Origin: Octopus vulgaris
Lineage: Eukaryota
Assembly (NCBI GenBank): GCA_951406725.2
Contig: OX597834.1
Span: forward strand, 7,316,001 to 7,380,000
Direction: 5' to 3'
DNA: 64,000 nucleotides
The notes beneath the pieces are model-generated. The model was not told where the DNA came from. It saw nothing but the letters and a program-made list of their open reading frames with translations, and made no database searches. Shown here in pieces: positions 6,595 through 60,301 of the stretch. A program made the translations under genes and the position numbers. The number at the start of each line of letters is the position of its first letter. Position 1 is the stretch's first letter.

Positions 6595-6774
6595 AATGTT
6601 GACTTATTTATTCATTTAGCAAAAATGAGTACCTTAATATTATAACTCAATACATATAAGGTAAGAATACAATTATAAAAATCACAATATAAATGATTGA
6701 AATCATTAAAATCACTCCTTACAGCTGTTTCAGCATATGGATAAAAGTAATTTTTCTTTATCTTATATGTATTG

Positions 6775-6849
<75 letters not shown>

Positions 6850-6850
<1 letters not shown>

Positions 6851-7315
6851 CAAATTCGATGACTGGCATCCATACTAATGGAGTGTTAAGAGCACTATCT
6901 GAGTGTGATTGTTGCCAGAGCAGCTAACTGGCTTCCATGCTGGTGGCACGTAAAAAGCACCATTCAAGCGTGATCGTTACCAGCGTCACCTTAGTGCCAC
7001 TTGCGCTGGTGGCACGTGAAAAAACATTTGAGCGAGGTCGTTGCCGGTGCCTCTGGACTGGCCCCTGTGCAAGTGGCACGTAAAAACACAATTTGAGTGT
7101 GGCCGTTGCCAATACCACCTGATTGGCCCTTGTGCCGGTAGCATGTAAAAGCACCCACTAAACTCTCGGATTGGTTGGCGTTAGGAAGGGCGTCTCTCTG
7201 TAGAAACTCTGCTAGATCAAGATTGAAGCCTGGTGCAGCCGTCTAGTTCGCCAGTCCTCAGTCAAATAATCCAATCCATGCTAGCATGGAAAGCAGACAT
7301 TAAACGATGATGATG

Positions 7316-7316
<1 letters not shown>
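6850..7316 (+). mobile_element. SINE family D 3' part with internal tggcacgtaaaaa repeats and (GAT)n tail
   Basis: Four ~60-bp internal units; tail ccatgctagcatggaa..gac.ttaaacgatgatgat also at ~1700-1960 and 6520-6562. Confidence 0.75.
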
Positions 7317-7366
<50 letters not shown>

Positions 7367-7367
<1 letters not shown>

Positions 7368-8003
7368 CGTAAGATACATATATAGGGTAGCGAATAATTG
7401 TTATAAATATCACCACCAGTGGCCTAGCATGTCAATAGACAACATATTCATATTTTAAAATATTGTACATTTAAACACAAAAGAAAACTACCCTTTAACA
7501 GGTAATTTTTACATGCTAGAAAAAGCAGCCAACAAGGCCAAAATCACTATTTAATAGCAATTTTCGAAGGAAATGAAAAATAAAAACTCTTACCTTGTTA
7601 TTTTTATTTGCGGTTATACCAATGGTTTCAAATTTCTTTAACAAATAAGATTATCTGCTACCCTTTAATAGGTAATTTAGCAAACAATATTATCCACCAG
7701 GCGAATTCTCATCAGTAACCGGCATCAGTTACTAACTTATAATTCAGAGACAAGATAACACGTGTCCCATCATTATATGTTATAACTTTTCAAAATTCCG
7801 CGCGCAGGTGCAGTTTCAGTCTGCAGTAAATATAATGCGGAGCTGAATCTTCGAGTATGGTAAGAACACATTCACAAGTTACATCTATAGGGTAGCGAAT
7901 ATTCGTTATAAATATCACCACCAGTGGCCTAAGATGTATAAACAGTCATTAGACAACATATTCATATTTTAAAATAGTGTTTAAATGTACACTATTTTAA
8001 AAT
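7367..8003 (-). mobile_element. Non-autonomous HHR element in (TA)n with ~95-bp terminal direct repeat
   Basis: tatagggtagcgaata...atcaccaccagtggccta...agacaacatattcatattttaaaata occurs at 7381 and 7886 (offset 505); HHR between. Confidence 0.7.
7611..7721 (-). ncRNA. Type I hammerhead ribozyme with extended stem II
   Basis: Minus: cggtta CTGATGA gaatt...aattt GAAAC CATTG GTA taaccg. Perfect 6-bp stem I. Confidence 0.8.
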
Positions 8004-8109
8004 ATATATATATATATATGTGTGTGTGTGCGTGTATATATGTATATATATATATATGTATGTATCTATGTATATATATGTATGTATCTATGTATATATA
8101 TATATATAT

Positions 8110-8278
8110 AACTCTGAGTTTTGGATGCCAATGTGGAAATCCACAACACCATCTCTTCGGTTATCTGGCCATCTGAAAAACGGTATGAAAACGCTTTTTA
8201 CATAGCGTTTTTCAGATGACCATCTAGCCGAAGAGATGGTGTTGTGGATTTCCACTTCGACATCCGAAACTCAGAGTT
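8110..8278. repeat. Inverted repeat (fold-back) next to (TA)n
   Basis: aactctgagttttggatg...ccacaacaccatctcttcgg vs ccgaagagatggtgttgtgg...catccgaaactcagagtt. Confidence 0.85.
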
Positions 8279-8284
8279 TTATCT
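8221..8284 (+). ncRNA. Degenerate hammerhead (CCGAAGA core) in hairpin element, homolog of 15112-15174
   Basis: CCGAAGA gatg...catc c GAAAC TCAGA GTT ttatct. Downstream tail (attgtcacatatt...gataaatttcctctatttacataa) is shared with 15040-15110 minus. Confidence 0.5.
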
Positions 8285-8408
8285 TGGCTATTGCATAATT
8301 GTCACATATTAATTTACAGATAAATTTCCTCTATTTACATAATATTGAGGTCTCTTTCTTTCTTTTGTTATCTTACCGTTTTTACCAATATGCATATATA
8401 TATATATG

Positions 8409-8484
<76 letters not shown>

Positions 8485-8485
8485 G

Positions 8486-8522
<37 letters not shown>

Positions 8523-8523
8523 G

Positions 8524-8574
<51 letters not shown>

Positions 8575-8604
8575 TACATACATATATATATATGTATGTA
8601 TCTA

Positions 8605-8661
<57 letters not shown>

Positions 8662-9190
8662 ATACACACACACATCTATTGGTGTCATAAAAATTTTGAG
8701 ACTTCGGGGGAATGTGATATATTTCATTTCAACTGTTGAATTTAAAGTATGAAACCACTTACTCATGGGATAACATCTGAATTTTTGTATTCAAAGTAAT
8801 TTTTTTTTTACACCGAAATTACACGCAATCTTATTATAACTTTTCTCCTTCAAATTCACTCATGGAAAACGAATTATATGGAAAATGGACGTTAATCGAC
8901 AAAGACAACAAGGACGACGACGATGATGATGATGATGACGCCGCCATCGTCGATAATGATATCTATACACACACACATACACACACACATGTTGTGTGAG
9001 ATGTTCCATATTCTTCCAGTTTATTCTATTTTATTGACACAGGCATTGTTGTCATAAATATAAATAATTTAAGTTTGAATAATTCATTAAAGCAATCTCA
9101 CCGAGAAAGTGTTGCTTTTTATATGAATTCATGTAATTATTGTGACGTGCAAGTGTATCTATTATTTACTTTATATGTGTGTGAGTGTGA

Positions 9191-9230
<40 letters not shown>

Positions 9231-9981
9231 TTGCGTTTGTGCATGTGAAGATCGGGTGTTCTGAGAAGTGAGTTAAAATATATCGTGGCTAAGAAAGCCA
9301 TGTACTGAGACAGACACTGAGAGAGAGACAAACATTGAGAGAGACAGACAGAGGGAGACAAAGAGACAGAGAGACAGACAGAAGAGAGACAGACAGAGAA
9401 CCCAATAGATAAATTGGTAGACAGATAGACAGACAAACATATAGACAGATATACATATAATGAGGTGTTGAAAAGTTCTTGGCTTTGAGTTAAAAAAAAA
9501 TACTGGAGGATCAGTTAATTATGATATATCAATAAAAAAACTGTGTGGAGGCACGTGGCTTAGTGCTGAGAGTGTCAGCATCACGATCGTAAGATTGTGG
9601 GTTTCGATTCTTGGACCGGGCGACGAGTTGTGTTCTTGAGCAAAACACTTCATTTCACGTTGCTTCAGTTCACTCAGCTGACAAAAATGAGTAACACTGT
9701 GATGGACTGGTGTCCTGTCCAGCTGGGGAACTCATACGCCATAGAAACCAGGAAACCGGACCCATGAGCCTGGCTAGGCTTTAAAAAGGGCACAAAAATA
9801 AGAAAAAAAAAAACTGAACTACTTTATAAAGTTTATCTGATGAGGAGGCTGGGCAAGAATGAGATGCTCTTATATATGAAGATATGGTTAATATATTTGA
9901 TATCTATCAGTAAGTCCATCCCTTAGATCCTGAAGTATGTAGATGGCAAAATATGTTGCATCACTGAAAATATTTTTATGC

Positions 9982-10199
9982 TGGTTGGCAGAACCGTTAG
10001 CACGCCGGACAAAATGCTTCACGGTATTTCGTCCGCCGTTACGTTCTGAGTTCAAATTCCGCCGAGGTCGACTTTGCCTTTAGTCCTTTAGGGGTCGATA
10101 AATTAAGCACCAGTTACGCACTGGGGTCGATGTAATCGACTTGAACCGTTTGTTTGTCCCCTCTGTGTTTAGCCCCTTGTGGGTAGTTAAGAAATAGGT
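9982..10199 (+). mobile_element. SINE family B
   Basis: ggcagaaNcgttagcacgccgg...gagttcaaattcc (B box)...ggggtcgataaattaag. Confidence 0.88.
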
Positions 10200-10480
10200 A
10201 TATAGTGAGTGCAAAACCATGAGCTGGCGGAATTGTTAGCACACCAGGCATATAATAACATGAAATATTATAAATCTTTAAAGTTGTTCTAGAATATTCT
10301 TTTTATTTGATCAAATTGGTAACTGGAATCTTCTAAGATAAGTTCCTTCCATGGAAAAGATGAAATCATGACTCTCAGTTTAACATATCAAAAAGAAGCC
10401 GAACTACTTCATAAAGTTTACTTGATGAGGAGGCTATGCAGGAATGAGAGGCTATTATATATAAAGATACGTTGTTGATA

Positions 10481-11031
10481 CTTTGTCCGGAAAGTTCATG
10501 CCGATTTATAGTAGCTTACCTTTCAACTTGGTTGAGTCCATAAAATAGGATTTGACTACACCTCAATTTAGAGTAAAATTTAAGGTATCCTTTCATGGAA
10601 GAAGGTTTATGTTCCTATAACCTGTGTTAATTCTGTAACCCTTTAAAAGGGAAGATAAGAAAGTTCATTTTCGGCACTTGATGCTTTGGGAACCAGACAA
10701 AAATTGCTGCAGCTCGGCTGGGATGTGTTACCCTACCCTCCATATTCACCAGATATTGCTCCTTCAGATTTCCCTTTATTCAGGTCTCTGCAGAATATTC
10801 GTAATGGTAAAAATTTCAATTCCTTGGATGACGTAAAAAGATACCTTGATGAATTCTTTGCCACGAAACCACCTCAATTCTGGGAAGTGAGTATTTTCAA
10901 GTTAAAGGAAAGATGGAGACGCATTGTGCAACAAAATGGCACGTATTTGGTTGATTAAAAATGTAATGGCAAGTATTTATCGACCTTTTTCTTTCCTTTA
11001 AAAATCGGCACAAACTTTCCGGACAAACCAA
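10481..11031 (+). mobile_element. Internally deleted mariner element
   Basis: TIRs tttgtccggaaagtt..tgccgattt / aaatcggcacaaactttccggacaaa. N-terminal EDKKVHFRHLMLWE joined to C-terminal LGWDVLPYPPYSPDIAPSDF.LFRSLQN...KLKERWRRIVQQNGTY. Confidence 0.9.
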
Positions 11032-11702: not shown

Positions 11703-11754
<52 letters not shown>

Positions 11755-11759
<5 letters not shown>

Positions 11760-11978: not shown

Positions 11979-12035
<57 letters not shown>

Positions 12036-14041: not shown

Positions 14042-14047
<6 letters not shown>

Positions 14048-14298
14048 TGGTCGTATACTGTCAACTCAATGTGACAGTCCCGTAAGGGAATTACACCACC
14101 GCCATTTAGCTCTAGGAAACATCGACGTCTCCTGTCGGCTTTGACACATTTTCTGTGTCCTTATATTTGGAAAGGGGAGGCAATCACCCCCCTGCAAACC
14201 GGGACAAGGAGACATCGATGTTTCCTAGGGCTAAATGGCGGTGGTGTAATTACCTTACGGGACTGTCACATTGAGTTGACAGTATACGACCACTATAT
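14042..14298. repeat. Inverted repeat, ~90-bp arms, in (TA)n
   Basis: gtggtcgtatactgtcaactcaatgtgacagtcccgtaagg... (14042-14133) vs reverse complement at 14207-14298. Confidence 0.9.
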
Positions 14299-14385
14299 CG
14301 CTCCGCCACCGCTCATGTCTCTCTAATATTTCTAATATATATATATATATATATAATTTATATATATATATATATATATATAAAT

Positions 14386-15571: not shown

Positions 15572-16329
15572 ACACGGACATACAGAAACACACACAAACA
15601 CACACACACACGGACACACACACAAACTCTCTCTCACACACACATACTTACACTTATACATATATATATCAGGATTATCATGATCGTCATCATCATTTAA
15701 AATACATGTTCTACGCTGGCATGGATTGGATGCTTTAACAGGATCTGATGGATCCAAATACTTCATCCTCCTCCGAAGTCTGCTTCTATATGTTTTCGAA
15801 GGTGAATAAGTATCGACAGCTAGCAAGCCGTGACACTGCAGACAGATGAGGACCAATGACTCTGAAACCAGTCCCTGGATGCTGGCTTTGCAGGGTGGAT
15901 GTGCTTATCTCCCCTCTTTGAAAACCACAGGACACAGAACGCATGTGTCACATGGCTAACGGGAAACAGAGTTTCCTGAGGCTAAATAGTAGTACCATTT
16001 CCTCCTTTCCTGGGACTGCCATATTAAGTTGGCAACAAACCATCACTGTATATATATATATATAGGGATGGCATTATTAAAATACCATCACAAGTGGTAA
16101 GCGAATTATCAACCGTACAGGCAAATTAATAAAATATAAACATACAATATTAGATATGTACATATCTAATATTGTATTCATATATTTTATTACCACTTGT
16201 GATAGTATTTTAATAATACCATCCCTATATTTATATATAAATAATTTTACACATGTCGTTTGTTCCATTTCAAACGAACTTTTGCAGGCATGATGGTAGG
16301 GAATGTTAGTAGTAATTTATCTGGCGAAC

Positions 16330-16388
16330 TTTGCCTGATGAGAAATCAGGCACCTATTTGGCGCTAAATTTCGAAACCGGTACCAGGT
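16330..16388 (+). ncRNA. Type I hammerhead ribozyme (first stem I pair mismatched)
   Basis: tttgc CTGATGA gaaat...atttc GAAAC CG GTA ccagg. Perfect stem II base, palindromic ACCGGT stem III. Confidence 0.7.
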
Positions 16389-16668: not shown

Positions 16669-16814
16669 AAGACATTATTGTTCACTGATATTTTTTCCTG
16701 TCTTGTCTGTAATAGATTTGTGACTATTCGGTGGTACAGAAGTATTTTTTACTTCTATCATTAGCGATATAGGTACTCGTGTAGCACCCTAGTGTATCTA
16801 TGTACGTATCTAAT

Positions 16815-16881
<67 letters not shown>

Positions 16882-18788: not shown

Positions 18789-18953
18789 CAAAATAAGCAA
18801 CAAGGATATTCAAGGTAGAGTAGTGCAATTGTTTCATGCTAAGATTGCTCGACATTTTAATAAAACTGATGTAATACTTACAGTGTTTAATAAAATGAAG
18901 TAGCATGAAACGATTGTACTACTCTACCTTGGATATCCTTATTGCTTATTTTG
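18789..18953. repeat. Inverted repeat, ~53-bp arms, next to (TA)n
   Basis: caaaataagcaacaaggatattcaaggtagagtagt...catgcta vs tagcatg...actactctaccttggatatccttattgcttattttg. Confidence 0.85.
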
Positions 18954-19244
18954 ATTATAATCACCCCATTTGATTTACATGGATAATACCATACAAAATT
19001 CTGGTACCTTTAACTTAAGTACCATATTCATCTGAATCTAAATTTTTCTGAACTTATATATATATATATATTTATGCATACGCGCGCGCGCGCGCACACA
19101 CACATATGTGGTGTATCTTCTTCTTCTTCTTCTGTTGTTCAAGGTTGAATATGTAGCCGTAAAAATAACTCTGAGGGGAGTGAACGCCAAAGGGAGTCGA
19201 TCACTCTGGAGGTGGTGAGAGTGGAGAACGTCATGGCGGCTAGC

Positions 19245-20354
19245 GAATTTTTTTTTCCCACGAGAGTTCCGGAAACCCGCCGTTATGAACTCATTTGCAT
19301 ACAGCCAATCAAAGCTCAACTATCAAACTAGTGTTCACCCAGTCACGAAAATAGTCTGATTTAGTGCAGTGAAAAATATGCGTTACAGCAAAATCTAACT
19401 GTTCTAAACGGGTTAATACGGGTGACAACAAATGTGAAATTTAGTTTATAAAGGGAATGGAGAACTGCTTACCGACGATGCCATAAGTATTGCCAATTTG
19501 CGTAATTTACCAGAAAATATAAATGAGTGAAGTTTCCTAAAATTTTGACTGATTTTGTACATTCCTAATTTAACATGTTGGTGTTGATCTGGGAACATCG
19601 TAATCAATATGGCGTTGTGTCGTATTGCGCCCTCCTTGCGTATATTAATAGGTACATGCAATATCACTAATCTCAGTCTGAGCATATGTACCGAATATTA
19701 GCTCCATATAGAGATGGTACTCAATAGATCTATGAGGATGATAAGGCGAATGTAGTGCTCATGTGAGACCTGCTATGCTGTATTCACAGAGTGATATACA
19801 CCATTCTATGCTGGGCTGGCTGTACTATAGTAGTACAGTCGAACCAATTCTACTATATGGCTCAGAAACCTGGACGTTATCAAAGAAGCTTGAGAGGCGG
19901 TTGGATGGAACTTACCCTCGCCTCCTTATGAGAGCTCAACATCTCTCGTAGAAGCGTCATCCAACCAAAATGCAAATATATGGGAAATTACCACCTGTAT
20001 CATCTCTTGTGAAAGGTAGAAGAGTCTTGTTTGCAGGACATTGTTGTAGAGCTGAAAATGAGGTAATTTCTACTCTTCTCCTCTGGAAGCCATCTGCTCG
20101 CGATACAAGAGGGTGCACACTCTACTACCCTGTTGTAATCTTCAGGGATACAGGCATCCAGCAACAGGACCTCCGTAATGCTATGATGGACCGTGAAGTC
20201 TGGCGTAACAGTAAATTCCATTGTCTCGACCACGGTCGAACAACGATGATGATGATAGTAGTACACAGTATGCGGATTTTCAAGGTGAGCTCTGATTGGC
20301 TGTATGCAAATGAGTTCATTACTGGGGTCCGGAACTCTCGTCGGAAAAAAATTC
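19245..20354. mobile_element. Element bounded by ~75-bp inverted repeats (19245-19320 / 20283-20354) hosting the RTE insertion
   Basis: cgagagttccgga..ccc..atgaactcatttgcatacagccaatca vs tgattggctgtatgcaaatgagttcat..ccggaactctcg. Confidence 0.6.
19838..20254 (+). mobile_element. 5'-truncated RTE-clade LINE 3' end
   Basis: VEPILLYGSETWTL...RR..FAGHCCR...LLLWKP...AMMDREVWR, (GAT)n tail, 11-bp TSD atagtagtaca at 19827 and 20255. Confidence 0.9.
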
Positions 20355-31340: not shown

Positions 31341-32534
31341 AGAAATGTTAAGGGTTGACGATGTGTGTTATCCCTTGCGAACAACTTGCAGGTTCTTTCA
31401 CTCATTTTCTACAATGCGTTTTTGGGGGAAATCTTCAGAGGCTCGACTCTACTTTGGTTCCTTGAATTAAGTTTCTGCTTCGACACGAGAGGTGATCTCT
31501 TCAAATATATTATTTCCAACATTTCTCCATTCATCTCTCTCTGCATAATATCATCGAATTCTCGTATACGTCGATACTTGTTTCCATTGTCTTTAAGTTC
31601 TTAAGTCCTGTTCTTTCAATAAAATATACTTTCATTTCTTCAGGGCAAAATGTTACATTTTGTTGTTCAAATTCTACCTCAGTATTTGGCACAAGGCCAG
31701 CAACTTCTGGGGAGGTGATAACTCAATTACATCCATCCCCAGTGTTCACTGATACTTATTTTATCGACCCCGAAAGGATGAAATGCAAAGTAGACATCGG
31801 CGGAATTTGAACTCAGAACGTTAAAGCAGACTACATGTCACTAATCATTTTATCCGGCGTGTTAAAGATTCTGCCAGCTCACCGCCTGTGATGTCATCAA
31901 CATATTCCCTGTACTTCAAGTTTGTAGTTGTTTGCGTGCTTTAGGAGCAGTTAGAATTTTTAGAGAGGTAAAGCGCAGAACCTCATGCTTTTATTTTAAT
32001 TATAGGGAATCAATAATTCCAGTGATAAACCTACATTGCAATATAGATAAAAAAACAACTCTCTCTCATTCATCAGCACTCCATCAACTTCGATGATATG
32101 CATGAATCAGTCATCTCTCTTACTAGCGACTTCTTAATAACGGTTGAGAGTTATAACAGCGAACATGTAGCATCCCATTATTTGGGATGCCACATGTTGT
32201 GTCACGTTCGTCAGTGGCTACCTGGTATGTTCGACTACCAGCCTCGGCTCCACTCTTCGTCAGACCGAAGAAGGCAAACTGCCAAAGTATCGGTCGCTCT
32301 CTGATAGGTTTATGGTCGAGCCTGTGACAATCGAAATCTCCGGCGTTCAAGGCACCTGGACTAAATCTCTGCTCATTGTTTGTTATAGGAGAAGAGATGG
32401 CTATTCGAAAGTGCGAGTCCTGTGAGCCGGAGTGGTTGTTCCAATGCGTATCTGTCGCCATCCTCCAGAGCAACGCTGGGACCATAATGTAAACTGACCA
32501 TTACCTTATAAATGCGTTTTAGTCTAATAGATTG

Positions 32535-32832
32535 TGGAGGCGCAATGGCCCAGTGGTTAGGGCAGCGCATTCGCGGTCGGAGGATCGCGGTTTCGATTCC
32601 CAGACCGGGCTATGTGTGTTTATTGAGCGAAAACACCCAAAGCTCAACGAGGCACTGGCAGGGGGTGGTGGCGACCCCTGTTGTACTCTTTCGCCCCAAC
32701 TTTCTCTCATTTTTTCTTCCTGTTTCTTGAGTAACGCTGTGATGGACTGGCATCCCGTCCAGCTGGGGGGAACACATACGCCACAGAAACCGGTAAACCG
32801 GGCCCATGAGCCTGGCTAGGCTTGAAAAGGGC
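32535..32832 (+). mobile_element. SINE family C, tail type 3
   Basis: Same head; tail gatggactgg..tcc.gtccagctgggg...cccatgagcctggctaggct shared with 9546-9792. Confidence 0.85.
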
Positions 32833-33233
32833 TTAAAATAGTCTAATAGATCGAACCACTGACGTCAAGGCTGTGAACCAGTGTTACAAGTTACTCTTTG
32901 CTTTGACAGATGAAGCATCTGCTTCAGTTGACTAGAGGTTATAGATTGTCGGCAATCCCTTAAGCAAACTGTATATTGCAAGACGGTTTGTTAGAGGTTC
33001 TGCGCTTCATCTCTCTAAATATTATAACTGCCCCTAAAGCACGCAAACAACTACAAACCTGAAGTACAAGGAATATGTTGATAACAACACAGGCGGTGAG
33101 CTGGCAGAATCTTTATCACGCCGGATAAAATGATTAGTGACATGTAGTCCGCTTTTACGTTCTGAGTTCAAATTCCGCCGATGTCTACTTTGCATTTCAT
33201 CCTTTCGGGGTCGATAAAATAAGAAACAGGGAA

Positions 33234-33463
33234 CATGGACAAGATAGTCATCAGATATGAGCCCTATTGAACATCTCTGGGACATAAAGGACAGGACACT
33301 TCATAAAAAGAATAAGAAAGCATCTTCAAAGCCGGATCATTTGCCATTACTGCATGGAACTGGACTAAGAATTCCGAAAGAGAATATTCGTAATCAGATC
33401 AGTAACGTGCCTAATAGGGTCCTTGCATTGAAAAATGTAAAGGGCATGTCTAATAAATATTAA
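33234..33463 (+). pseudogene. Tc1 (DD34E) transposase C-terminal relic
   Basis: W...SSDMSPIEHLW...IPKENIRNQISNVPNRV.A....KG...KY. Confidence 0.75.
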
Positions 33464-34789: not shown

Positions 34790-34850
<61 letters not shown>

Positions 34851-35059
34851 AAATGGAAAGATGAATTTTCTTGTTACAGATTATTCAAAAGTTTAACCGA
34901 TACCTGGGTAGCAAAAATCACAGCAGAAAAAAACACGGTTGGAGATAAGACCATTTGGTGTTGCAACCGTGCGTTGGTGCGGATAATTGAAGTTTAATAT
35001 AATTAGTGAATGGAAGAAATGGAGTTGAACGAAGATTGTACAGAATTCCTTTTATTACA

Positions 35060-35139
35060 TTCTACACATGTTTCAAAGGCCACAATTTTCCAAATTCAGA
35101 TTAAATAAGGATACCATATTGCAGCTTTCTCTTCAGGAA
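35060..35139 (-). ncRNA. Type I hammerhead ribozyme in left arm (sense to the GIY-YIG ORF)
   Basis: Minus strand: ttc CTGAAGA gaaagctgcaat...attgtggccttt GAAAC ATGT GTA gaa. Stem I ttc/gaa, long stem II, cleavage triplet GUA. Confidence 0.75.
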
Positions 35140-35790
35140 AAACCAGGAATTACGTTGTCAGAACAAAACAAAACAGAGGCGCAGCAAAGCAATTCGAACG
35201 AGGACGCTCCCTAAGAGCCCATTGGTTAACTGTTTATCAATGTACGTTGAAATCGGGGGGTTGGTGGGGGCCGACAAAAGGTCCGTTGGAATAATTACAG
35301 GTCAGGCCGCGGTCAAATCTAGTAGGTGAGGAATTAATGAGAACAAGGGGTGTGGAGATGTTCTGTGTGACCAAAACTAATGTTCTGAATATTTTAAGAA
35401 TACAGGGTGTATTTCTTAGGGGCGAGACAAAACCTACCTTAAAGCATGTATGTGTATACTAGCCTATGTGTGCGCGGCCGTATGTTGGCGAGGGGCGCTA
35501 GATAATGAGCACTGCTGAAAAAAGCCTGTCAGGCGGCTGAAAAAATTCTGTGTTCGTGTGTTCGTCTGTGGCCTGCTTGTCTAAAAATTAATATCGTCAA
35601 AGAATCATAAGGGTATATATAATTCCAGCGTTTGCTTCTAAAAAAAAAAAAAAAACCGACCAATCGCCTAATGGGAGTAATTTCCCCTTGCAAGAGTTAT
35701 TCATAGATTTTTTAAAAAGTTTTCTCAAAAATTATTTCCAAAAATTATTTTCATTTTAATAGGGTAACAAGGTGTTAACTGTCTTAGGTA

Positions 35791-36498
35791 TCATTTATAT
35801 GTAAGATAAGTATGGCGCCGCCAATGGTGACATCGAAAAGCCGTCTGTAAAAGCCCGTTTACCAAACGGCCTCTGGCGAACAATATGTGGAAAAGCTCAG
35901 AGTTACAAAGATTACACCTCCTTCTGCCCCTATCAAACGGGAGGGCCACCGACAAAATCGACCATTCCAGCCTAAACACTGAATTCGCGTTCTTCAAACG
36001 CCAGATAAGTTTGCTAAGTCCTGTAGCTTGGTATTTATTAACGTCGCGAAAAGTTGCGAAATGGTTCGATATTCTCAAGGCCAATTTTGATGATGAGGCC
36101 CCGACATACGAGTAGACATCTGAATCCGTGTAAACATTGCATTGGTAAATGGCATTTCTGATCTTGGAGTTACTAGACAAGAACCTTATTCTATTGGGAT
36201 TAGCTTCTGATATTAATACTGCGTTTCTGTTACTATATTGACTGTGAGAACTGCGGCCGCCTACTACATTATACTCCTCATTATCACTATTAATTAACGG
36301 ACTAACCCCTGTGTATTCCCTATCACTGAGAACGCTGTAATTGCTAGTATCCGTGGACCTGCTATTGCCGGAAACGATGCTAAAGTTGTTATTAGGACTC
36401 TCTACATTAATGACCCGAACTGCGCTCACCTCCCTATTACCATTACTAACGTTATTAACATCACCATTTCTTCCATCGCTAATCATTGGCGGCGTCAT
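35791..36498 (-). CDS. GIY-YIG endonuclease of Penelope-like type with N/S-rich N-terminal region, no RT
   Basis: NAIYQC...YSYVGASS..LALRISNHFATF...TGLSKLIWRLK...LEWSIL...CNLCNSEL...LVN...CHH matches the PLE C-terminal endonuclease pattern (GIY, YIG, R, H, CxxC-E, N, C-x-H). 235 codons open; the ATG lies inside the inverted arm. Confidence 0.85.
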   Translation of the reverse strand: MTPPMISDGRNGDVNNVSNGNREVSAVRVINVESPNNNFSIVSGNSRSTDTSNYSVLSDREYTGVSPLINSDNEEYNVVGGRSSHSQYSNRNAVLISEANPNRIRFLSSNSKIRNAIYQCNVYTDSDVYSYVGASSSKLALRISNHFATFRDVNKYQATGLSKLIWRLKNANSVFRLEWSILSVALPFDRGRRRCNLCNSELFHILFARGRLVNGLLQTAFRCHHWRRHTYLTYK

Positions 36499-37165
36499 AC
36501 TTATCTTACATATAAATGATACCTAAGACAGTTAACACCTTGTTACCCTATTAAAATGAAAATAATTTTTGGAAATAATTTTTGAGAAAACTTTTAAAAA
36601 ATCTATGAATAACTCTTGCAAGGGGAAATTACTCCCATTAGGCGATTGGTCGGTTTTTTTTTTTTAGAAGCAAACGCTGGAATTATATATACCCTTATGA
36701 TACTTTGACGATGTTAATTTTTAGACAAGCAGGCCACAGACGAATACACGAACACAGAATTTTTTCAGCCGCCTGACAGGCTTTTTTCAGCAGTGCTCAT
36801 TATCTAGCGCCCCTCGCCAACATACGGCCGCGCACACATAGGCTAGTATACACATACATGCTTTAAGGTAGGTTTTGTCTCGCCCCTAAAAAATACACCC
36901 TGTATTCTTAAAATATTCAGAACATTAGTTTTGGTCACACAGAACATCTCCACACCCCTTGTTCTCATTAATTCCTCACCTACTAGATTTGACCGCGGCC
37001 TGACCTGTAATTATTCCAACGGACCTTTTGTCGGCCCCCACCAACCCCCCAATTTCAACGTACATTGATAAACAGTTTACCCATGGGCTCTTAGGGAGCG
37101 TCCTCGTTCGAATTGCTTTGCTGCGCCTCTGTTTTGTTTTGTTCTGACAACGTAATTCCTGGTTT

Positions 37166-37245
37166 TTCCTGAAGAGAATGCTGCAATATGGTATCCTTAT
37201 TTAATCTGAATTTGGAAAATTGTGGCCTTTGAAACATGTGTAGAA
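37166..37245 (+). ncRNA. Type I hammerhead ribozyme in right arm
   Basis: ttc CTGAAGA gaatgctgcaat...attgtggccttt GAAAC ATGT GTA gaa. Confidence 0.75.
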
Positions 37246-37300
37246 TGTAATAAAAGGAATTCTGTACAATCTTCGTTCAACTCCATTTCTTCCATTCACC

Positions 37301-37342
<42 letters not shown>

Positions 37343-37856
37343 ATGGTGAATGGAAGAAATACATTTATAAATGTACATATATAAATATATATATATAAAT
37401 ATATATATAAATATATATACATTTATAAATGTATATATATAAATATATATGCATATATATATATATGCATATATGTATATGTATATATATGTATATATAT
37501 ATGTATATATATATAAATGTATGTATATATATATATAAAATAGAAAAGAGTGAAAAAACTACAGAAGGCTTGTTTTATAAGGCTATATATACATATATGC
37601 GGTGCTCCAGCATGGCCACAACCACTGAGCTGAAACATATTAAAGAATAAAAGAGTATAATATATATGTACACTCACACACACACGCATGCACACATACA
37701 TACACCAACATATGTAAATATTCACACATATGCATCTGTTTGATTATACAAACCAGCAAAAATACTCAGTAATGAAATGAAGAGTATTTAGTGATGAGTT
37801 TTCGCTCTGTTGTAACGTCGATCTTTCCGCATATTCGCTTACCATGCAGCAGAAAA

Positions 37857-41278: not shown

Positions 41279-41437
41279 AAATAAATGTATTTGCATTTTT
41301 TCAGTGTGTACAAACAACATGGAAAAACTAAATAAACAGTTACCAGGTTAGCAAAAAATTCCTATAAGTTCTAAGGATGTTACGATCTACTTATAAAGGT
41401 AGAAATTCCAGGGTTTATTGAAATGTTTTTGTATAAC

Positions 41438-41688
41438 AGATAAATAAAGAAATGGAGTTAAACGCAGGTGTTATTCGAATCTTTATACTCCCGACATTTG
41501 TTTCAAAGAAAACATTGGAATTACTCCAGAGAGAATAAAATGATGTAAAACAATGCAATTTCCTCATCAGGAAAAGAAAGAGAAACAAAATACACCAATT
41601 AGCCATTTTAACCAAATGTGATTACTGCGCGTCGGAAATATAAAGATTTGAATAACACCTGCGTTTAACTCCATTTCCTTATTCATCT
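41438..41688. repeat. Inverted repeat (41438-41495 / 41631-41688) flanking an HHR
   Basis: gaaatggagttaaacgcaggtgttattcgaatctttata..ccgac vs gtcgg..tataaagatttgaataacacctgcgtttaactccatttc. Confidence 0.88.
41488..41575 (-). ncRNA. Type I hammerhead ribozyme
   Basis: Minus: ttttc CTGATGA ggaaattgcattg...caatgttttcttt GAAAC AAAT GTC gggag. Confidence 0.7.
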
Positions 41689-49332: not shown

Positions 49333-49630
49333 AGGGAATGAAAAATAAAAACATTCACTATCTCCTAGATCAGGATTTCTGACTTTATATTAGCAAATAA
49401 AATAATTTGCTAGGCGAAGTCTTCATCAACAGGTACGCCTAGATTAAACATATAAATACGAGGTAATCCAGCAGGTGCCTCGTGCTTATATATAATTTTT
49501 CAAAATTTGGGTTGCCTCGTATTTATATGTTAAATCTAGGCGTACCTAGCAAATTATTTTATTTGCTAATATAAAGTCAGAAACCATGGTCCAGGAGAGG
49601 GATGGCAAATGTTTTTATTTTTCATTCCCT
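49333..49630. repeat. Fold-back element (arms 49333-49470 / 49508-49630), family of 7367-8003
   Basis: Shares ggRaatgaaaaataaaaac tail and ttcgcct..tttgctaa stem II with the 7.6-kb element. Confidence 0.85.
49364..49433 (-). ncRNA. Degenerate hammerhead in left arm of fold-back 49333-49630
   Basis: Minus: cctg TTGATGA agactt...aagtca GAAA tcctga TC tagg. The right arm keeps GAAACCATGGTC cagg (49580-49595) but has lost the CTGANGA segment. Confidence 0.6.
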
Positions 49631-50378
49631 TCGAAATTTATCCCTAATAGTGGTTTGGAATTTGGCTATTCCTTCTAGCGTGCAAGGAATCCTATGATGG
49701 CTACCTCTTATGTGCTTGAAATTGTATTCGTGTGTTTAAATTGTGATTGTTAGACGAGCTTAAAAATTTGAAAATTTGTAAATCTGTATCATTTGAGTAA
49801 CACGGAAGCCGTTTTTGCGCGTGTTAATTGAGTTAATTAATGATGGAGTTACTTGACAGTAATAGTTACACAAGTATTGGGAATTGGGGAGGAAATAAAA
49901 GGTTTTATATCACTAGAAAGACGTTAGCTGCATGGAGAGAAGTAGGGAATTCGGAGGTTAAGGAATTCCAGAGGAAAGACAAAGAAAGATGGGAAATAAC
50001 TTGACAAAAGGGGTCAGAAGAAATTAAATTATTAGAAGTGAGTTCGATAGTACCAACTTAATGGGACGCCATAGTTAACTCTCAAGGCTGTTATCGTAAG
50101 AGCCGAATTAATTTAGCATAATTATTTGTAATTTTTCAGCAAGCAATTGCAGAGTAGTTCATTAACTGAGCTCAAACCGTTTTAATTTTCGAGACTAACG
50201 GCGACGTTCTTCGTTAATTTGGCAGCTAACATTAAATCTAATGCTCCCGTGTCTAAGAATGGGCGTTGAATCAAGTAAAGAATCTGGGATTCTTCGCACC
50301 CGGAAAATATTTTATATCGACATATATATATATATATTAGGCAAATCAAACAGTGAAAAACACAAGCCAATACATAAA

Positions 50379-50656: not shown

Positions 50657-50740
<84 letters not shown>

Positions 50741-50742
50741 AA

Positions 50743-50904
50743 TAGGAGCAGGTGAGGCCGTGTGGTAAGAAGCTTGCTTCCCAAACACATAGTTCCGGGT
50801 TCAGTCCCACTGCGTGGCACTTTGGGCAAGTGTCTTCTACTAAAGTCTCAGGCCGACCATAGCTTTGCGAGTGGATTTGGTACACGGAAACCGAAAGAAG
50901 CGCA

Positions 50905-50975
<71 letters not shown>

Positions 50976-51233
50976 TGTGTGTATGTTTGTATGTCTGTGT
51001 TTGTGCCCCTAGCATTGCTTGACAACCGATGCTGGTGTGTTTATGTCCCCGTTACCTAGCGGTTCGGCAAAAGAGACCGATAGAATAAGTACTGGGCTTA
51101 CAAAAGAATAAGTCCCGAGGTCGAGTTGTTCGATTAAAGGTGGTGCTCCAGCATGGCCGTAGTCAAATGACTGAAACAAGTAAAAGAGTAAGAGTGTATA
51201 GTCAAATGACTGAAACAAGTAAAAGAGTATAGA

Positions 51234-51283
<50 letters not shown>

Positions 51284-51447
51284 TGCGCTTCTTTCGGTTT
51301 CCGTGTACCAAATCCACTCGCAAAGCTATGGTCGGCCTGAGACTTTAGAAGAAGACACTTGCCAAAAGTGCCACGCAGTGGGACTGAACCCGGAACTATG
51401 TGTTTGGAAAGCAAGCTTCTTACCACACGGCCTCACCTGCTCCTATT

Positions 51448-51501
<54 letters not shown>

Positions 51502-51719: not shown

Positions 51720-51724
<5 letters not shown>

Positions 51725-52180
51725 TGATCAAAATAAAATAAAAACATGATGCGAAGGATTCAGCGGTACATATGATTAGACAGATTTATAACAATGTATA
51801 ATGTATGTCTGTGGCCTTCTTCAGCCGCGCACAACAGCTACAAACATGTGTTACATCAAAATTCTGGTTGGGATGAATCCTCTCATTCGCGGCAAGGATC
51901 CATCAATGTAGAATGTTTATCATTCTACATTGAGAGAAGAAGGAGATGGACGCTTCAATTCTATGCTGCTGCCGCATTATGTCGTACGCGAATGAGAGGA
52001 TTCGCATCCCCAACCAAGAATTTTTGATGTAACACATGTCCTTGTGGAAGCTGTTGTGCGCGGCTGAAGAAGGCCACAGACATACATTATGCATTGTTAT
52101 AAATCTGTCTAATAAAGGCCCGAAACATATGTACCGCTGAATCCTTCGCATCATGTTTTTATTTTATTTTGATCAATTTA
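51720..52180. repeat. Fold-back element (arms 51720-51891 / 51987-52180) with HHR
   Basis: aaattgatcaaaataaaataaaaacatgatgcgaaggattcagcggtacatatg vs reverse complement. The left arm lacks the aaaggcccgaaa segment. Confidence 0.9.
52060..52137 (+). ncRNA. Type I hammerhead ribozyme
   Basis: gcgg CTGAAGA aggcc acaga...tctgt...ggccc GAAAC ATAT GTA ccgc. Palindromic ACATATGT stem III. Confidence 0.82.
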
Positions 52181-52249
52181 CTCCACCACCTACACCACCA
52201 AACGGTATACACAGGTGCTTATAATTATCAAGTACTCACCCCGAATTTC

Positions 52250-54088: not shown

Positions 54089-54578
54089 ATAATGGATAGA
54101 TTCATCGCCTGTGAGTATGAAATATCCCCTCATATCTCCGAAAATTACACCTACATTATTATGGATGGATTTACCTTTTCTGTGAAGCTAACAAGCTTTT
54201 TTAAAACCTGTTATAAGACTGTGCATCTTTAGAGAACTTTGGAAGTCTGCTTACAATCTAAATTTGCTTTTTATAGAACTATCTTCGATACTTCATGAGT
54301 GTAGCCTCACCCCCTAGGATGTTTAGAGAACTCATATGTGTTTTGGCTGATGAGTACGGGACACTTGTATTTGCTGCAATATTTGCAGCTTTTAATAAAG
54401 CTGTTCTTCGTATGAAAGAATTGTACTGAAAAACTAATCCATTCTTGTTGCTTTTTTCTTGTTTATAATCACCCCACATTATTTTATGGTTAATACCATG
54501 TAGTTTTCTGGTGCATCTAAGTTAAGTTCCGCATTCATGTGAATTCAATAGAACTCACTTGAATCTTAATTGCTTTTA

Positions 54579-54624
<46 letters not shown>

Positions 54625-55306: not shown

Positions 55307-55684
55307 GCACTTCGTCGGTTACGACGACGAGGGTTCCTGTTGATGCGAATCAACGGAACAGCCTGCTCGTGAAATTAACGTGTAAGTGGCTGAGCACTCC
55401 ACAGACACGTGTACCCTTAACGTAGTTCTCGGGGATATTCAGCGTGACACAGAGAGTGACAAGGCCGGCCCTTTGAAATACAGGTACAACAGAAACAGGA
55501 AGTAAGAGTGAGAGAAAGTTGTGGTGAAAGTGTACAGTAGGGATCACCACCATCTCCTGCTGGAGCCTCGTGGAGCTTTAGGTGTTTTCGCTCAATAAAC
55601 ACTCATAACGCCTGGTCTGGGAATCGAAACCGCGATCCTATGACCGCGATTCCGCTGCCCTAACCACTGGGCCATTGCGCCTCC
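55307..55684 (-). mobile_element. SINE family C, tail type 1
   Basis: Same head; tail shared with 6160-6495. Confidence 0.85.
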
Positions 55685-56499
55685 TCCTACAAAATTAGAG
55701 ACATACAGTTATAGATAGTGTGACACATACACATACACAAACAGTGTGACACATACAGAGTGACTCACACGCAAGCACGCACACACTGAAACACACACAC
55801 ACACGCACCTGCAGTTACAAACGTACACACAGGTAATCACGAGTTTAAAATGGCTTAGAGTAGACATACGTGTGTATATATGTACGTATGGCCATCTACT
55901 CCCTCTCTCCTTAAAGCTATGTATTCTTGACACCACCTTTCTTTCCTTTCCTCAGCGTTTTAAGAATTATTTAGGTGCATGTGCGTGTGTGTTTGTGCAT
56001 GTATCTATGTATTTACGAAAGTATGTATGCACCGTCGCGTGTATAAAGCAGCTGTATTGTCGTTACCATACCATTGTCACTCAATATTTGTCGCTTACAT
56101 AACACCGTTATCCCCTTCCCTGATATCAGTCACAATAACTATGCTATTACATTTCCCTCGCACTGCCACTTTTCGCACCCTTCTCATTTTTTCGTATAAT
56201 AGCCCAACTCCATTATGGGACCATTTTAAACATTTTTTATTGCAAGCTAATGATTTGAATATAATTGAACTGGATGTTAGCTTAACATGTATGCAGAGTT
56301 TCGTCAACATTGGTTCACTGGTGTATGCAGTAGAGTGACAGACAGAAATTGCTATTTATGTATTATATATAATATATATATATATATATTTAATAATTAT
56401 TTGAGGGGATATTAATCCTAACTTACAGGGAAAAAATTTAATTTAGAAATACTAAATCAAATTTCACACAATATGATATATATATATATATAAAACTTA

Positions 56500-56621
56500 G
56501 TAAAAAATACCTTTTATCAGTTCAAAATGAACAATTAAATTACACCACTTAATATTTCTATTATATGTAATTTTCTAGATGGTGTAATTTAATTGTTCAT
56601 TTTTAATTGATTAAAGGTGTT

Positions 56622-56627
<6 letters not shown>
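56500..56627. repeat. Short inverted repeat between (TA)n tracts
   Basis: aaaatgaacaattaaattacacca vs tggtgtaatttaattgttcatttt. Confidence 0.75.
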
Positions 56628-56666
<39 letters not shown>

Positions 56667-56966
56667 TCGTATCTATATATATAGGTATATATGTTATATA
56701 TTCACCTCTCTCTCCCTATATATATATACATACATGCTTTTAGATATGTACACACAACACACACACACACACATATTCACCTGTACACATGTACACGCGC
56801 GCAAGCTAGCACACAAGTGATTCCGTGTAAGCCTATATGTATACATACCTGCTTACCTACCAATAAAAAGTCATGTTTGAAGAATTAATCTGTCGTCGGA
56901 TGGAAATGAATGTCAGCAAGGTAGAGTACAAAATTTTACCTTCAATAACCTGCATAGTAACATCCG

Positions 56967-57398
56967 ATCTTTTCGGTTTGAACGGCAGTTTTTCTAGCGG
57001 TGTCATATGAAATTGTCATCCATAATTATGACCCTAGTATCGATCTATTGCATTTCGATCATTGTTCGAGTTAGGGTTAAAGTTAGGGTTACTTAGGGTT
57101 AGGGTGGGGGGAAGGGTATCTTTTTTTCTTCACAAATGTAAATAAACCCAATCTGTTTCTTAAACGAGGGACATATTCATACGGCACAGAATGTTTTCAC
57201 CACAATAGACGCTATTGATAGGTTGAAATTGCAGAAATTGAAGAAAAAAACAACAAATATCTTACAAACGATAGAATTTTCTCAATAAAGCCAAGAGAAA
57301 AAGATGTTTTATAAACACATTGTACCAGTATACGAAGTTTAAAAGTGTTTAGCTACGTGGAAATTATTTTTAAAAACTGCAGGTCAAACCGAAAAGAT
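56967..57398. mobile_element. MITE with TIRs and internal TTAGGG-like repeats
   Basis: atcttttcggtttgaacggcagttttt / aaaaactgcaggtcaaaccgaaaagat; gttaggg repeats at 57070-57105. Confidence 0.75.
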
Positions 57399-58340
57399 AC
57401 GAAATATCAAAATCAACATTGACAACAATAGCAAAATAACATTGAAATGAGTAATGCGATTATACAAAAGGAAGGCAATGCGAAGAATAAACACTCGTTA
57501 AAATATGTAACTTCAATACACACACACACACATACACACACACACACACACACAAACAAATACACACACACATACGCACATACATGCATATAAATCTTAA
57601 ATTTGTATTAATTACAATGTATATTTGTGCAGGGAGCGAGTCAAAAACTAAGGAGTATACAGACTTCGGGAGAATGAAAGAAAGAAAGAAAGAGAGCGGG
57701 AGGAAGGGAGAAGAGGAAGGAGAGTTGGGAAGAAGAGCAGAGAGCGAGAGTAGGGAGAGAAATGGGAGACAGAATGAGAGTGTGAAATAGCGAAATAGAT
57801 ATATAGACGTTTAGATAAAAATATCTCTATACCTTATATACTCACACACGCATGTGTACGCACATACATACATGCATACATACGTATCCACACACACACA
57901 TAAATACATACACAGACGGACAGGTACACACACACACATACACACATACACACATATATTTAAACACATAATACACACGCTCATATGTATATGCATGCGA
58001 GCGTGTGTGTGTGTGTGTGTGTGCATATATAATTATAGAAATATAGAATTTATTGAATGAGACTTCAGAAATTAACAAATCCCTTCCGGATTCGTAATAA
58101 TTTGTAGTCTCAGTTTTCGTTATGAATATATTTTAAGGGTGATTAATTAAAGCTGTGTATTTATCATTTTTGAATAGATCATTTTTTTTTTGTAGAGTTG
58201 TAGGAATGGTAAGATAAATGGACTCAGATCTAATTAATATGAGAGTCTGCTTTCTTTACATGCTTAAATTCATTTGAGTGAATAACAATTTTCGGATTGG
58301 TAGGAGAGGACTATATTAATTTTGTTACATTTATTTATGG

Positions 58341-58656
58341 AAATTCGCCGTTCCCTCATGGATGGTGATTTTCCAGAGTGGTCTGTTTTTTGACGTTTCC
58401 TCCCAGTTGGTGAAGTCAATGTCACACTTTTTGAGGTTCGATTTCAGGGAGTCCTTGTAGCGTGGAGGAGAAAAGACGACGACGGAAGGAGCGCCAACAA
58501 CAACCACGTGCGACTCTCCCTTCCGGCACTAGATGTCCGCACTGTGAACGATCTTTTCGAGCAAGAATTGGTCTTATCAGTCACCTGCGGACTCACCAAT
58601 AAATTTGCGCGAAGACCATCATCCTCGACCTTGAGGGATTGCCATAGTAGTAGTAG
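58341..58656 (+). mobile_element. RTE LINE 3' end with 5' inversion
   Basis: 58341-58462 minus: RYKDSLKSNLKKCDIDFTNWEETSKNRPLWK. 58463-58600 plus: EEKRRRRKER...CPHCERSFRARIGLISHLRTH*. (TAG)n tail; TSD tatttatgg at 58332 and 58657. Confidence 0.88.
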
Positions 58657-59925
58657 TATTTATGGGTTCTTCGTATTGAGGGAATCACTGGCACATTGTT
58701 CTGTAGCATTAGTTTAAATTAATTTTGGATGGCGAGCTAGCAGAACTTTTAGTGCATCGGGCAAAATGCTTAGCAGCATTTCTTCTGGAAATGTAATTTC
58801 TAGGTTCAAATACCACCGAGGTCGACTTTGCCATTCGTCCTTTGGGGTTCGATGAAATAAGTATTAATTAGTTGAACATTGGGGTCAATATAATATACTC
58901 GCTATTCTTCTAAAATTGATGGCCTTGTGCGAAAATTTTAAACCATCGTTTTAAATCTGTATCTTGACAGTCATTTTAAAACTAAAATATTGGTATCTTA
59001 GGAGACCGAAATACATCAGGAAATGTTACTGAACCTCTCAAATGTCAGACTCTATCATTATTGCTTCCTTTATTTGTCCTTTTACTTAACATTGATCTCG
59101 GTATCAAGCTAATGAAGATGAAGAATGTTCAAAGGTGTCAACAACATGTAAAAGAATTGATCGGCTGACGGCTCTTTGGGTCACTAAGACGGAGTGTCGT
59201 AAATGATTGAATCAGAGGTGAGTTTAGGTTAGACGAAGTAAAGTAAGTTTATAGAGATTCTTATATTACTGTTTTTAATAGCAACTAGAACAAAAATAAG
59301 TGGCAGGGAGTTGTCGATTATATCTATTACAATATATGGCTAATATTTTATATTATAACTTGGAAGGGCAAACGGTAAAGTGGACCATCTCAACTACACG
59401 TCATTTATACGCAAACCAGGAACCACGCGTCACGCAAGCAATCTAGTAATTCCATCACATTCTAGTAAATGTTTAAGGGCATGCATAGACGCTATTAATT
59501 TCAAGATAACGTCATTACACCCCCACATTGAATATGAGCAAACTTCAGCAAGGAAACTTACGATTACACCTTGTTTTAATCTTCAATGTCATCGAGGATT
59601 ATTTTCTGGCGAGAGATCTTTAACAATTCAAGAACCTCATCTCAAACTGTGGTCCATTACTTTTGTACGAGAAAACCATTCAGGCCCCTACAATTACGAC
59701 TCTACAAAGTTCATAGAGGTACATCATAAAGTATTGTTTCTTCGTCGGGTACGAAGCTGTTTCTCGGGAATTCACAGACATTTCAGACCTTTTTCAGAGT
59801 CCGAGGAAAGAAAACGTCAAATGACACCGTCCTTGTTTTCTTTGTATCGTCTATCAGGATGTTTTGTTGTCCCATTTTTGTATCACCTAACTGCCCGAAT
59901 GTTTTGCGTTCTTGTCCCAATTTTG

Positions 59926-60006
<81 letters not shown>

Positions 60007-60010
<4 letters not shown>

Positions 60011-60301
60011 GAAATGAAGAAAATGCTGACAAAATAATTGAAGTAAGGGAGAGTGTATTTAATTAGGTGAAAGTTCTTTTTACCGGTTGCGCATTTGTTA
60101 TGCTTATCAAAAGATATTTTGAGTTCCTTTCTGATTGATTTTTTTCTCTTATCTGATAAGAGAAAAAAATCAATCAGAAAGGAACTCAAAATATCTTTTG
60201 ATAAGCATAACAAATGCGCAACCGGTAAAAAGAACTTTCACCTAATTGAATACACTCTCCCTTACTTAAATTATTTTGTCAGCATTTTCTTCATTTCCTT
60301 T
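60007..60301. repeat. Near-perfect 295-bp palindrome (1-nt spacer at 60154) carrying a hammerhead-like motif
   Basis: 147-bp arms with 2 mismatches seen. 60195-60232: ctt TTGATAA GCAT aacaa ATGC GCAA CCGG TA aaaag, mirrored at 60076-60113. Flanked by (TA)n. Confidence 0.9.

Follow-up and report, generated by a model that had tools for sequence, protein, structure and literature searches.

How fold-back inserts, each consisting of a stretch of DNA and its own inverted copy, come to recur beside (TA)n tracts is the question raised by this locus of Octopus vulgaris. The window analyzed here is a 64,000-nt stretch for which a sequence-only reading had listed eleven such inserts. All eleven intervals, which we call A to K in order of position, proved to be inverted repeats at the positions listed, the largest being F (34997-37308). 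We found one more such fold-back, the twelfth, at 7365-8005; it is absent from that list. After masking of microsatellites, the window contains 38 inverted pairs with short spacers, many of them SINE pairs, versus 0-1 per shuffle (10 shuffles). MITE-like elements are also present. The arms of the eleven inserts differ by 0.6-12.5% substitutions, large indels, and 0-7 gap events, which is not expected from simple fold-back of reads, and a junction from another F-family copy (35151 to 37224/5) was found in two studies. Sequencing or assembly artefacts are thus a hardly credible source of the hairpins, although in insert I (51720..52249, plus strand; hammerhead at 52064-52133 followed by a tail) the inverted tail-less arm at 51720-51891 has seven gaps and only one substitution, and several of these gaps are in homopolymers, so polishing errors could have affected one arm.

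The inserts had been described as TA-flanked and independent. One outer end lies within 10 nt of (TA)≥4 in 10 of the 11 (background 2.4% per side), but both ends do so only in D (16064) and J (56500), and neither does in H (49333), where the distances are 37 and 691 nt. The families are mostly distinct, F (34997) and G (41438) being the only related pair, and those of B, C, and E are each represented in the window by a further copy that lacks the inverted arm. In the usual layout one arm stops at (TA)n and the other continues through a tail of 36-158 nt. This asymmetry was missing from the earlier picture. Nine inserts have such a one-sided extension, which D and J lack in clear form, and it was demonstrated to be element DNA for B, E, F, G, and H.

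Individual inserts vary around this layout. A (6592..6781, minus strand) is a truncated copy with the 3' half of a hammerhead, a predicted cut after 6720, and a tail at 6592-6636; its inverted tail-less copy (6748-6781) ends in (TA)n. The twelfth fold-back (7365..8001, minus strand) has a hammerhead core at 7715-7617, a partial tandem (7370-7480 versus 7875-7985), and an inverted 25-nt copy at 7977-8001 that leads into (TA)n. Non-LTR retrozymes are defined by at least two units in tandem that each contain an entire hammerhead (10.64898/2026.07.22.740005); we rejected this identity, as the partial tandems at 7365-8001 contain one core only and no core-bearing tandem array was found. B (8110..8393, plus strand) is a near-symmetric hairpin with a 5-nt loop, a hammerhead in each arm, and a tail at 8279-8393; its arm-less relative is at 15168-14960. 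C (14042..14334, no strand assigned) joins a longer tail-less copy (14042-14200, minus strand) to a shorter one (14203-14298) with a 36-nt extension that is a candidate for element DNA only, and its arm-less relative (15860-16049) has a degenerate hammerhead upstream. D (16064..16225, no strand assigned) is a hairpin centered on a palindrome. Its center repeats 31 nt (16799-16829) at the end of an adjoining hammerhead insert with a core at 16335-16382 (z 5.7); a by-eye likeness of D to the 7365 insert was rejected (z 0.8). E (18789..19054, plus strand) combines a hairpin, a degenerate hammerhead with a predicted cut after 18918, and a tail, with an arm-less relative at 54347-54580. G (41280..41688, minus strand) has a hammerhead at 41570-41493, a tail, and an inverted copy of 58-64 nt. 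In H (49333..49720, plus strand) both arms carry a hammerhead, the right arm lacking 19 nt with the first core half, and the right extension is element DNA common to the tail at 7617. J (56492..56628, no strand assigned) is a hairpin between two (TA)n tracts for which no hammerhead, relative, or neighbor match was found in the window. K (60007..60342, plus strand) is a 146-bp hairpin with a 3-nt loop and a 41-nt extension; a degenerate minimal hammerhead was recognized by eye near 60199-60227, and no Rfam hammerhead was among 60 matches. Element assignment is weak or lacking for D, J, and K.

Most of the inserts had been said to overlap a hammerhead or its tail. Pattern searches found an outward-pointing type I core or 3' half in seven of the eleven: full or split cores in B, F, G, H, and I, a degenerate one in E, and the 3' half only in A. 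Three others have indirect ties (K through its by-eye core, D through an intact core 110 nt away, and C through a core in its relative only) and J has none. The window has 10 full cores versus 0.87 in 30 shuffles. The intervals make up 7.3% of the window and contain 10 of 19 half-sites (P 2e-7; 8 of 17 when counted as events, P 1e-5), while the half-site total is not above shuffles (19 observed versus a mean of 9.85 and a maximum of 19). The 3'-outward geometry fits all eight outward-pointing half-sites inside the intervals; two half-sites in C point inward. Among the Rfam matches listed (150 of 236 in one search) there was no hammerhead family except HH9 in C at E 3.8; the other listed matches were of microsatellites and hairpins to miRNA models, below threshold. 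At ten further hammerhead-like regions, local inverted repeats did not score above 26. The predicted cut site coincides with the left 3' end of B and with the inner, 5' end of the short copy of G, and three well-covered contig ends lie at -8, -6, and -3 from it. This gives a weak hint that the cut site is a preferred end; it stays weak because ends upstream of the cut are impossible from cleaved RNA and the palindrome of stem III explains them equally well.

The long copy of F (34845..36483, minus strand) is a 5'-truncated Hydra-type Penelope-like element with an ORF end, a 3' region of ~790 nt, a hammerhead at 35136-35063, and a tail at 34845-34996. Its inverted tail-less copy (36484..37303, plus strand) is 98.8% like the left arm, contains a hammerhead at 37169-37242, and ends in (TA)n. 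The open frame (35791..36483, minus strand), which continues into the inverted arm to 36522, is predicted to encode an Asn/Ser-rich linker and a GIY-YIG endonuclease. The endonuclease model (pLDDT 90.4) matched I-TevI with a Z of 10.6 and an rmsd of 2.4 over 89 aligned residues; Foldseek matched nothing at E 0.001, nor did a sequence search of the PDB return a relevant entry. The Pfam GIY-YIG model was matched by 6 of 61 aligned relatives and not by F. The ORF is 55% identical to the Octopus sinensis model P0003. The window itself lacks an RT; by eye, RT motifs were recognizable in P0003, P0094, and P0108, and the Pfam RT model matched none of them. A stand-alone endonuclease was rejected since RT motifs lie upstream in P0003; the frame of F is probably the C-terminal part of an RT-EN ORF.

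CxxC and CxH motifs surround the conserved E and N in F and are conserved across the alignment, with no CCHH. Together with the C-terminal GIY-YIG, the canonical hammerhead, and the (TA)n target, this resembles the Hydra clade as described in the available text of PMC8557442, which also links a CxCX5C linker before the endonuclease to TA targeting and already catalogs members of the clade inserted in Octopus (TA)n, Hydra-1_Obim of Octopus bimaculoides among them. The linker is present in P0010, P0029, P0094, and P0108 but absent in F, P0003, and P0004; we therefore call F a putative linker-less variant, Hydra-type by its protein motifs. Protein support for the Hydra clade comes from F only. 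The proposed link of the fold-backs to Penelope-like elements and hammerheads was borne out.

Contigs of public runs contained other copies of the F family. Eleven of the 15 listed joints were head-to-head junctions, at no fewer than 10 distinct points; no contig among the matches listed bridged F's own junction (36483/36484). Run X1 had five junctions that were asymmetric by 19-137 nt, and run X5 had four symmetric ones at a depth of 5.6-14.5. In X1 the summed contig depth, which is not copy number, was 316,043 at the F tail versus 1,720-4,020 at 36239-36484, and depth fell off from the tail in all four runs. The family therefore has a 5' truncation gradient. Because the junctions vary among copies, the mirror half is made at each insertion rather than inherited as in MITEs. 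Fold-back formation is routine, as the frequency of the inserts had suggested, although that frequency is no surprise given the literature.

What we observe directly are outward 3' ends, a one-sided tail, hammerhead motifs, variable junctions within a family, and one Hydra-type GIY-YIG ORF end. We consider it somewhat probable that most of the hairpins are dead-on-arrival Penelope-like insertions, composed of head-to-head copies and likely generated by cDNA priming at both cut strands. A (TA)n tract would be cut on both strands by the element endonuclease, and the two freed DNA ends would serve as primers for separate cDNAs. One cDNA would start at a distal site and carry the tail; the other would start proximally, often at an internal UAUA/AUAU that could base-pair with the (TA)n end. 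The two cDNAs would terminate early and be joined at their far ends, often via a short palindrome. The 5' reach of the tail-less copy in C exceeds that of the extended copy, which requires two cDNAs. An internal TATA/ATAT marks the tail-less end of 4 of 12 inserts under strict scoring (P 1e-3) and of 8 of 12 under lenient scoring (null 0.11, P 9e-6), in a post hoc test designed once the data had been seen. Poseidon PAc protein cuts and extends both strands in vitro, has two internal starts downstream of the hammerhead and an AT-rich target, and is predicted to form a dimer (PMC11167929, available text). According to that account, its start site and the cut DNA are not homologous, whereas the proximal end of the octopus inserts often overlaps TA; this counts against the pairing that we propose.

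Of the two mechanisms put forward by the sequence-only reading, we favor priming on both strands over snap-back of a single cDNA, which would fold at a short palindrome and copy itself, the hairpin then being opened at an internal TATA by an endonuclease cut or by annealing to the target. Snap-back is possible, if clearly less likely. The tight or palindromic centers of B, D, E, and K, whose loops measure 0-12 nt, fit it equally well. So does the nesting of the tail-less copy in the tailed one, seen in A, F, G, and the twelfth insert, which are four of the five asymmetric cases open to judgment. Self-priming at junction palindromes was also proposed in 2013 (PMC3846280, available text). C is not nested, however, and a palindrome could equally join two identical cDNAs. 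The symmetric junctions of X5 would suit snap-back, but they are of low depth and may be library chimeras, and those of X1 are asymmetric. DNA repair after insertion, in which a (TA)n break folds back or switches template, would invert any neighboring DNA. Two inverted duplications containing SINEs, with common private differences and flank, look like this (50741-50907 versus 51281-51447, 98.2% identical, compared with no more than 87% to 17 further copies; 31743-31984 versus 32994-33235, 93.8%), as does a 17-nt inverted copy opposite the end of F across the TA run (37285-37360). We regard repair as improbable for the inserts, where the arms end at element-specific points, host flank is not copied, and the geometry was counted as constantly 3'-outward. 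The same layout is also known from species in which target duplications of the element lie outside TA tracts (PMC3846280, available text).

Short hairpins could also be MITEs, DNA transposons that carry long inverted repeats at their termini and duplicate TA. Sizes of 128-460 nt, TA ends, and the MITE-like elements in the window would suit such an origin, with which J and, less so, D are compatible. It is very unlikely, since relatives of B, C, and E lack the second arm, fixed shared terminal repeats were not found, at least 10 different junctions occur in the F family, element DNA continues past one arm, and hammerheads and a Penelope-like endonuclease are present. For B, C, E, F, G, and H we ruled it out.

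The octopus hairpins are a further instance of the inverted pLTR plus tail architecture of EN+ Penelope-like elements, in whose literature the inverted arrangement is called frequent (PMC8557442; PMC3846280, available text of both). They share with it a 5'-truncated copy adjoined head to head by an inverted 5'-truncated copy, a tail at one end, junction palindromes, a pLTR hammerhead, and an Asn-rich stretch between RT and EN. They differ in that most are stumps of 130-640 nt without an ORF, their tails are longer than the 30-40 nt in those accounts, and the tail-less end is often at an internal TATA/ATAT. A literature search that mostly covered papers outside subscription returned nothing on fold-back inserts of octopus, nor on an overlap of the tail-less end with TA. 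The position of that end at an internal TATA/ATAT is the one new hint from these inserts.

The predicted helices of the inserts span 16-112 bp. Differences between arms gave no editing signal (A/G 26 versus C/T 16, P 0.16). Inverted Penelope copies give rise to siRNAs in Drosophila (PMC3681739, available text), and a lizard Penelope and a palindromic frog Harbinger are hyper-edited (PMC5625713, available text). In these cases self-complementary repeats are a source of dsRNA; by analogy, it is plausible that transcribed hairpins would be substrates of ADAR or Dicer, as had been proposed. The latter source also reports that the proportions of long dsRNA-forming loci and of hyper-editing are exceptionally high in Octopus. 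A broader rule for TA-targeting Penelope-like elements in octopus, which we put forward as doubtful as a whole, is that priming of the tailed copy would need no homology, whereas the mirror copy would be primed by pairing of the self-complementary (TA)n end with an internal UAUA/AUAU; about half of the insertions would become hairpins, even in a family that has lost the zinc linker associated with TA targeting; the same machinery may copy SINE read-through RNA into inverted duplications; and together these would account for a large part of the perfect dsRNA that underlies hyper-editing in octopus.

How tandem and inverted Penelope-like inserts form is a question that PMC8557442 (available text) lists as open. 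A genome with many young fold-backs from several families could separate two-strand priming from snap-back, and the bias to internal TATA is a testable handle on the insertion mechanism. For the octopus, these inserts are a candidate source of long dsRNA.

The fold-back inserts in this window are real. The sequence-only reading had placed inverted repeats at 6637-6785, 8110-8278, 14042-14298, 16064-16224, 18789-18953, 34997-37308, 41438-41688, 49333-49630, 51720-52180, 56500-56627 and 60007-60301, and all 11 were borne out; it overlooked a twelfth at 7365-8001. With microsatellites masked, the window contains 38 short-spacer inverted pairs, in many of which SINE copies are partners, compared with 0-1 in each of 10 shuffles. 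The arms of the 11 intervals differ from each other by 0.6-12.5% with 0-7 gap events. Thus, the inserts differ in age and are not simple read artefacts. Polishing errors may affect only the gap-rich left arm at 51720. This arm (51720-51891) is tail-less, the extension (tail) lying beyond the other arm, and it differs from that arm by seven gaps and one substitution, an excess of gaps that may reflect either inaccurate synthesis or faulty assembly. The loop of this insert contains its own 13-bp hairpin near 51903-51933. The description of the inserts as TA-flanked held for one side: an outer end lies within 10 nt of (TA)≥4 in 10 of 11, both ends do so in only two, and neither does at 49333.

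A pattern search for full type I hammerhead cores found 10 in the window (mean of 30 shuffles, 0.87), including four inside the intervals, one beside an interval, one in the twelfth fold-back (7715-7617) and one in a relative. Relaxing the search to the 3' half alone gave 19 matches, which is not beyond the shuffle range (mean 9.85, maximum 19). Ten of the 19 fall within the intervals, which make up 7.3% of the window (P = 2e-7); counted as events, 8 of 17 do so (P = 1e-5). Eight of these 10 halves point outward and the two inward ones, both at 14042, are parts of a local palindrome. The proposal that most inverted repeats overlap a hammerhead is clearly supported at 8110, 34997, 41438, 49333 and 51720, and by degenerate or half motifs at 18789 and 6637. 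The motif at 60007 was seen by eye only, that at 16064 is adjacent only, that of 14042 is in a relative only, and 56500 has none. Several of the predicted hammerheads have long stem II loops, and Rfam did not confirm the pattern-found hammerheads among the matches listed. Further cores resembling hammerheads, with no inverted arm close by, occur on the minus strand at 62608-62577 (compact, minimal), 18740-18680 and 44228-44153, and on the plus strand at 54347-54424.

Kinship links 34997 with 41438, 49333 with the hammerhead at 7617, 8110 with 15118, 18789 with 54347, and 14042 with 15860-16049. The last three relatives lack the inverted arm, and sequence common to relatives continues beyond the arm into the extension at 8110, 18789, 41438 and 49333. 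We therefore rejected the arms as fixed terminal repeats of a MITE. Short terminal inverted repeats at 1981-2460, 10482-11027 and 19256-20345 likely mark DNA-transposon MITEs, the TTAA ends of the 1981-2460 repeat being presumably those of piggyBac. Retrozyme identity was also rejected, the inserts falling outside the definition in an animal-retrozyme preprint (10.64898/2026.07.22.740005).

The long copy of the large insert at 34997 (34845-36483, minus strand) bears an open frame, the last 126 residues of which gave a structure model with a pLDDT of 90.4. Compared with 48,161 chains, this endonuclease model had I-TevI among its best matches (Z 10.6, rmsd 2.4, 89 aligned), alongside three further GIY-YIG enzymes at the head of the comparison. 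The sole near-length protein relative is from Octopus sinensis, and an O. sinensis model 55% identical to the frame carries, upstream, both RT motifs and a linker rich in Asn. The O. sinensis models P0002 and P0003, whose annotations read dyrk1 kinase and uncharacterised protein, are really pieces of this Penelope-like ORF. The endonuclease shares CxxC and CxH motifs with the Hydra clade but lacks the CxCX5C linker of that clade, as described in sections of PMC8557442. An inverted copy of 820 nt follows the long copy and ends in (TA)n without a tail. The frame is open across the inversion junction (35791-36522), where the ORF end, in its inverted form, provides an in-frame ATG; as read from the sequence, this frame could in principle encode an endonuclease-only product of 235 aa. 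A 17-nt copy of the tail-less end lies opposite across a TA run (37285-37360) with 3' ends inward, the reverse of the other fold-backs. By eye, the tail end (34845-34870) resembles the tail-less end (37280-37303): both carry a pyrimidine-rich motif with CAA at its end, which might be a start signal present twice.

Contigs of four runs from four studies were compared with 34845-37303. Depth, which is no copy number, peaked at the extension and fell steeply inward, resembling a 5'-truncating retroelement. Among 15 joints listed, 11 connect the left arm with the right and represent head-to-head junctions in other copies; these fall at 10 distinct points, and one is common to two studies. The other joints are one strand change and three internal skips. 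Sequencing run X1 gave five junctions (depth 20-52) asymmetric by 19-137 nt, and run X5 four symmetric ones (depth 5.6-14.5) that may be library chimeras. Depth at the endonuclease C-terminus (35829-35992) far exceeds its neighbours in three of four runs, which might stem from a related family of higher abundance.

The inserts are very probably for the most part fold-backs of Penelope-like elements (PLEs). Wherever direction was readable, 3' ends face outward and the tail is one-sided. Priming on both cut strands, each giving its own cDNA, would produce this layout, and we lean toward two-strand priming. According to parts of PMC11167929, a Poseidon protein, a predicted dimer, both cleaves and extends the two strands and starts at two internal sites that together bound the tail. 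At the tail-less end there is overlap with an internal TATA/ATAT in 4 of 12 cases under strict scoring (null 0.043, P = 1e-3) and, under lenient scoring, in 8 of 12 (null 0.113, P = 9e-6), in a test built post hoc. Snap-back of a single cDNA, suggested from junction palindromes in a passage of PMC3846280, is a rather doubtful origin of the mirror arm. It is consistent with four nested cases and with the tight centres of 8110, 16064, 18789 and 60007, but these centres are not decisive since a palindrome could also join two identical cDNAs. At 14042 the copy without a tail extends further 5' than its extended partner. Provided that the extension is element DNA, snap-back of one cDNA could not produce this arrangement.

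Two inverted duplications involve SINEs. At 50689-51499, between two long (TA)n tracts, half a SINE and its upstream (CA)n flank are duplicated, the duplicates being 98.2% identical to each other, while their identity to 17 other copies does not exceed 87%. The geometry is that of the PLE fold-backs if the template was antisense read-through RNA; DNA-level duplication or conversion fits too. At 31743-33235, 242 nt (part of a SINE and about 90 nt of flank) are duplicated at 93.8% identity, with 1 kb between the duplicates and no neighbouring TA tract.

Helices of 16-112 bp are predicted for the ten short hairpins, and no A/G excess was found among arm differences (A/G 26 vs C/T 16, P = 0.16). 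There are precedents for dsRNA from such repeats elsewhere. Inverted Penelope regions match siRNAs in transgenic flies (an excerpt of PMC3681739); a portion of PMC5625713 describes lizard Penelope as heavily edited and octopus as rich in dsRNA-forming loci.

The fold-backs are explained at the class level. Sections of PMC8557442 call an inverted 5'-truncated copy frequent, describe the tail as one-sided and (TA)n as the target of Hydra elements, and list Hydra-1_Obim of O. bimaculoides. Our results add a number of families from octopus, a Hydra-type family without the linker that is nevertheless found in (TA)n, a collection of junctions, and a hint of internal TATA use.
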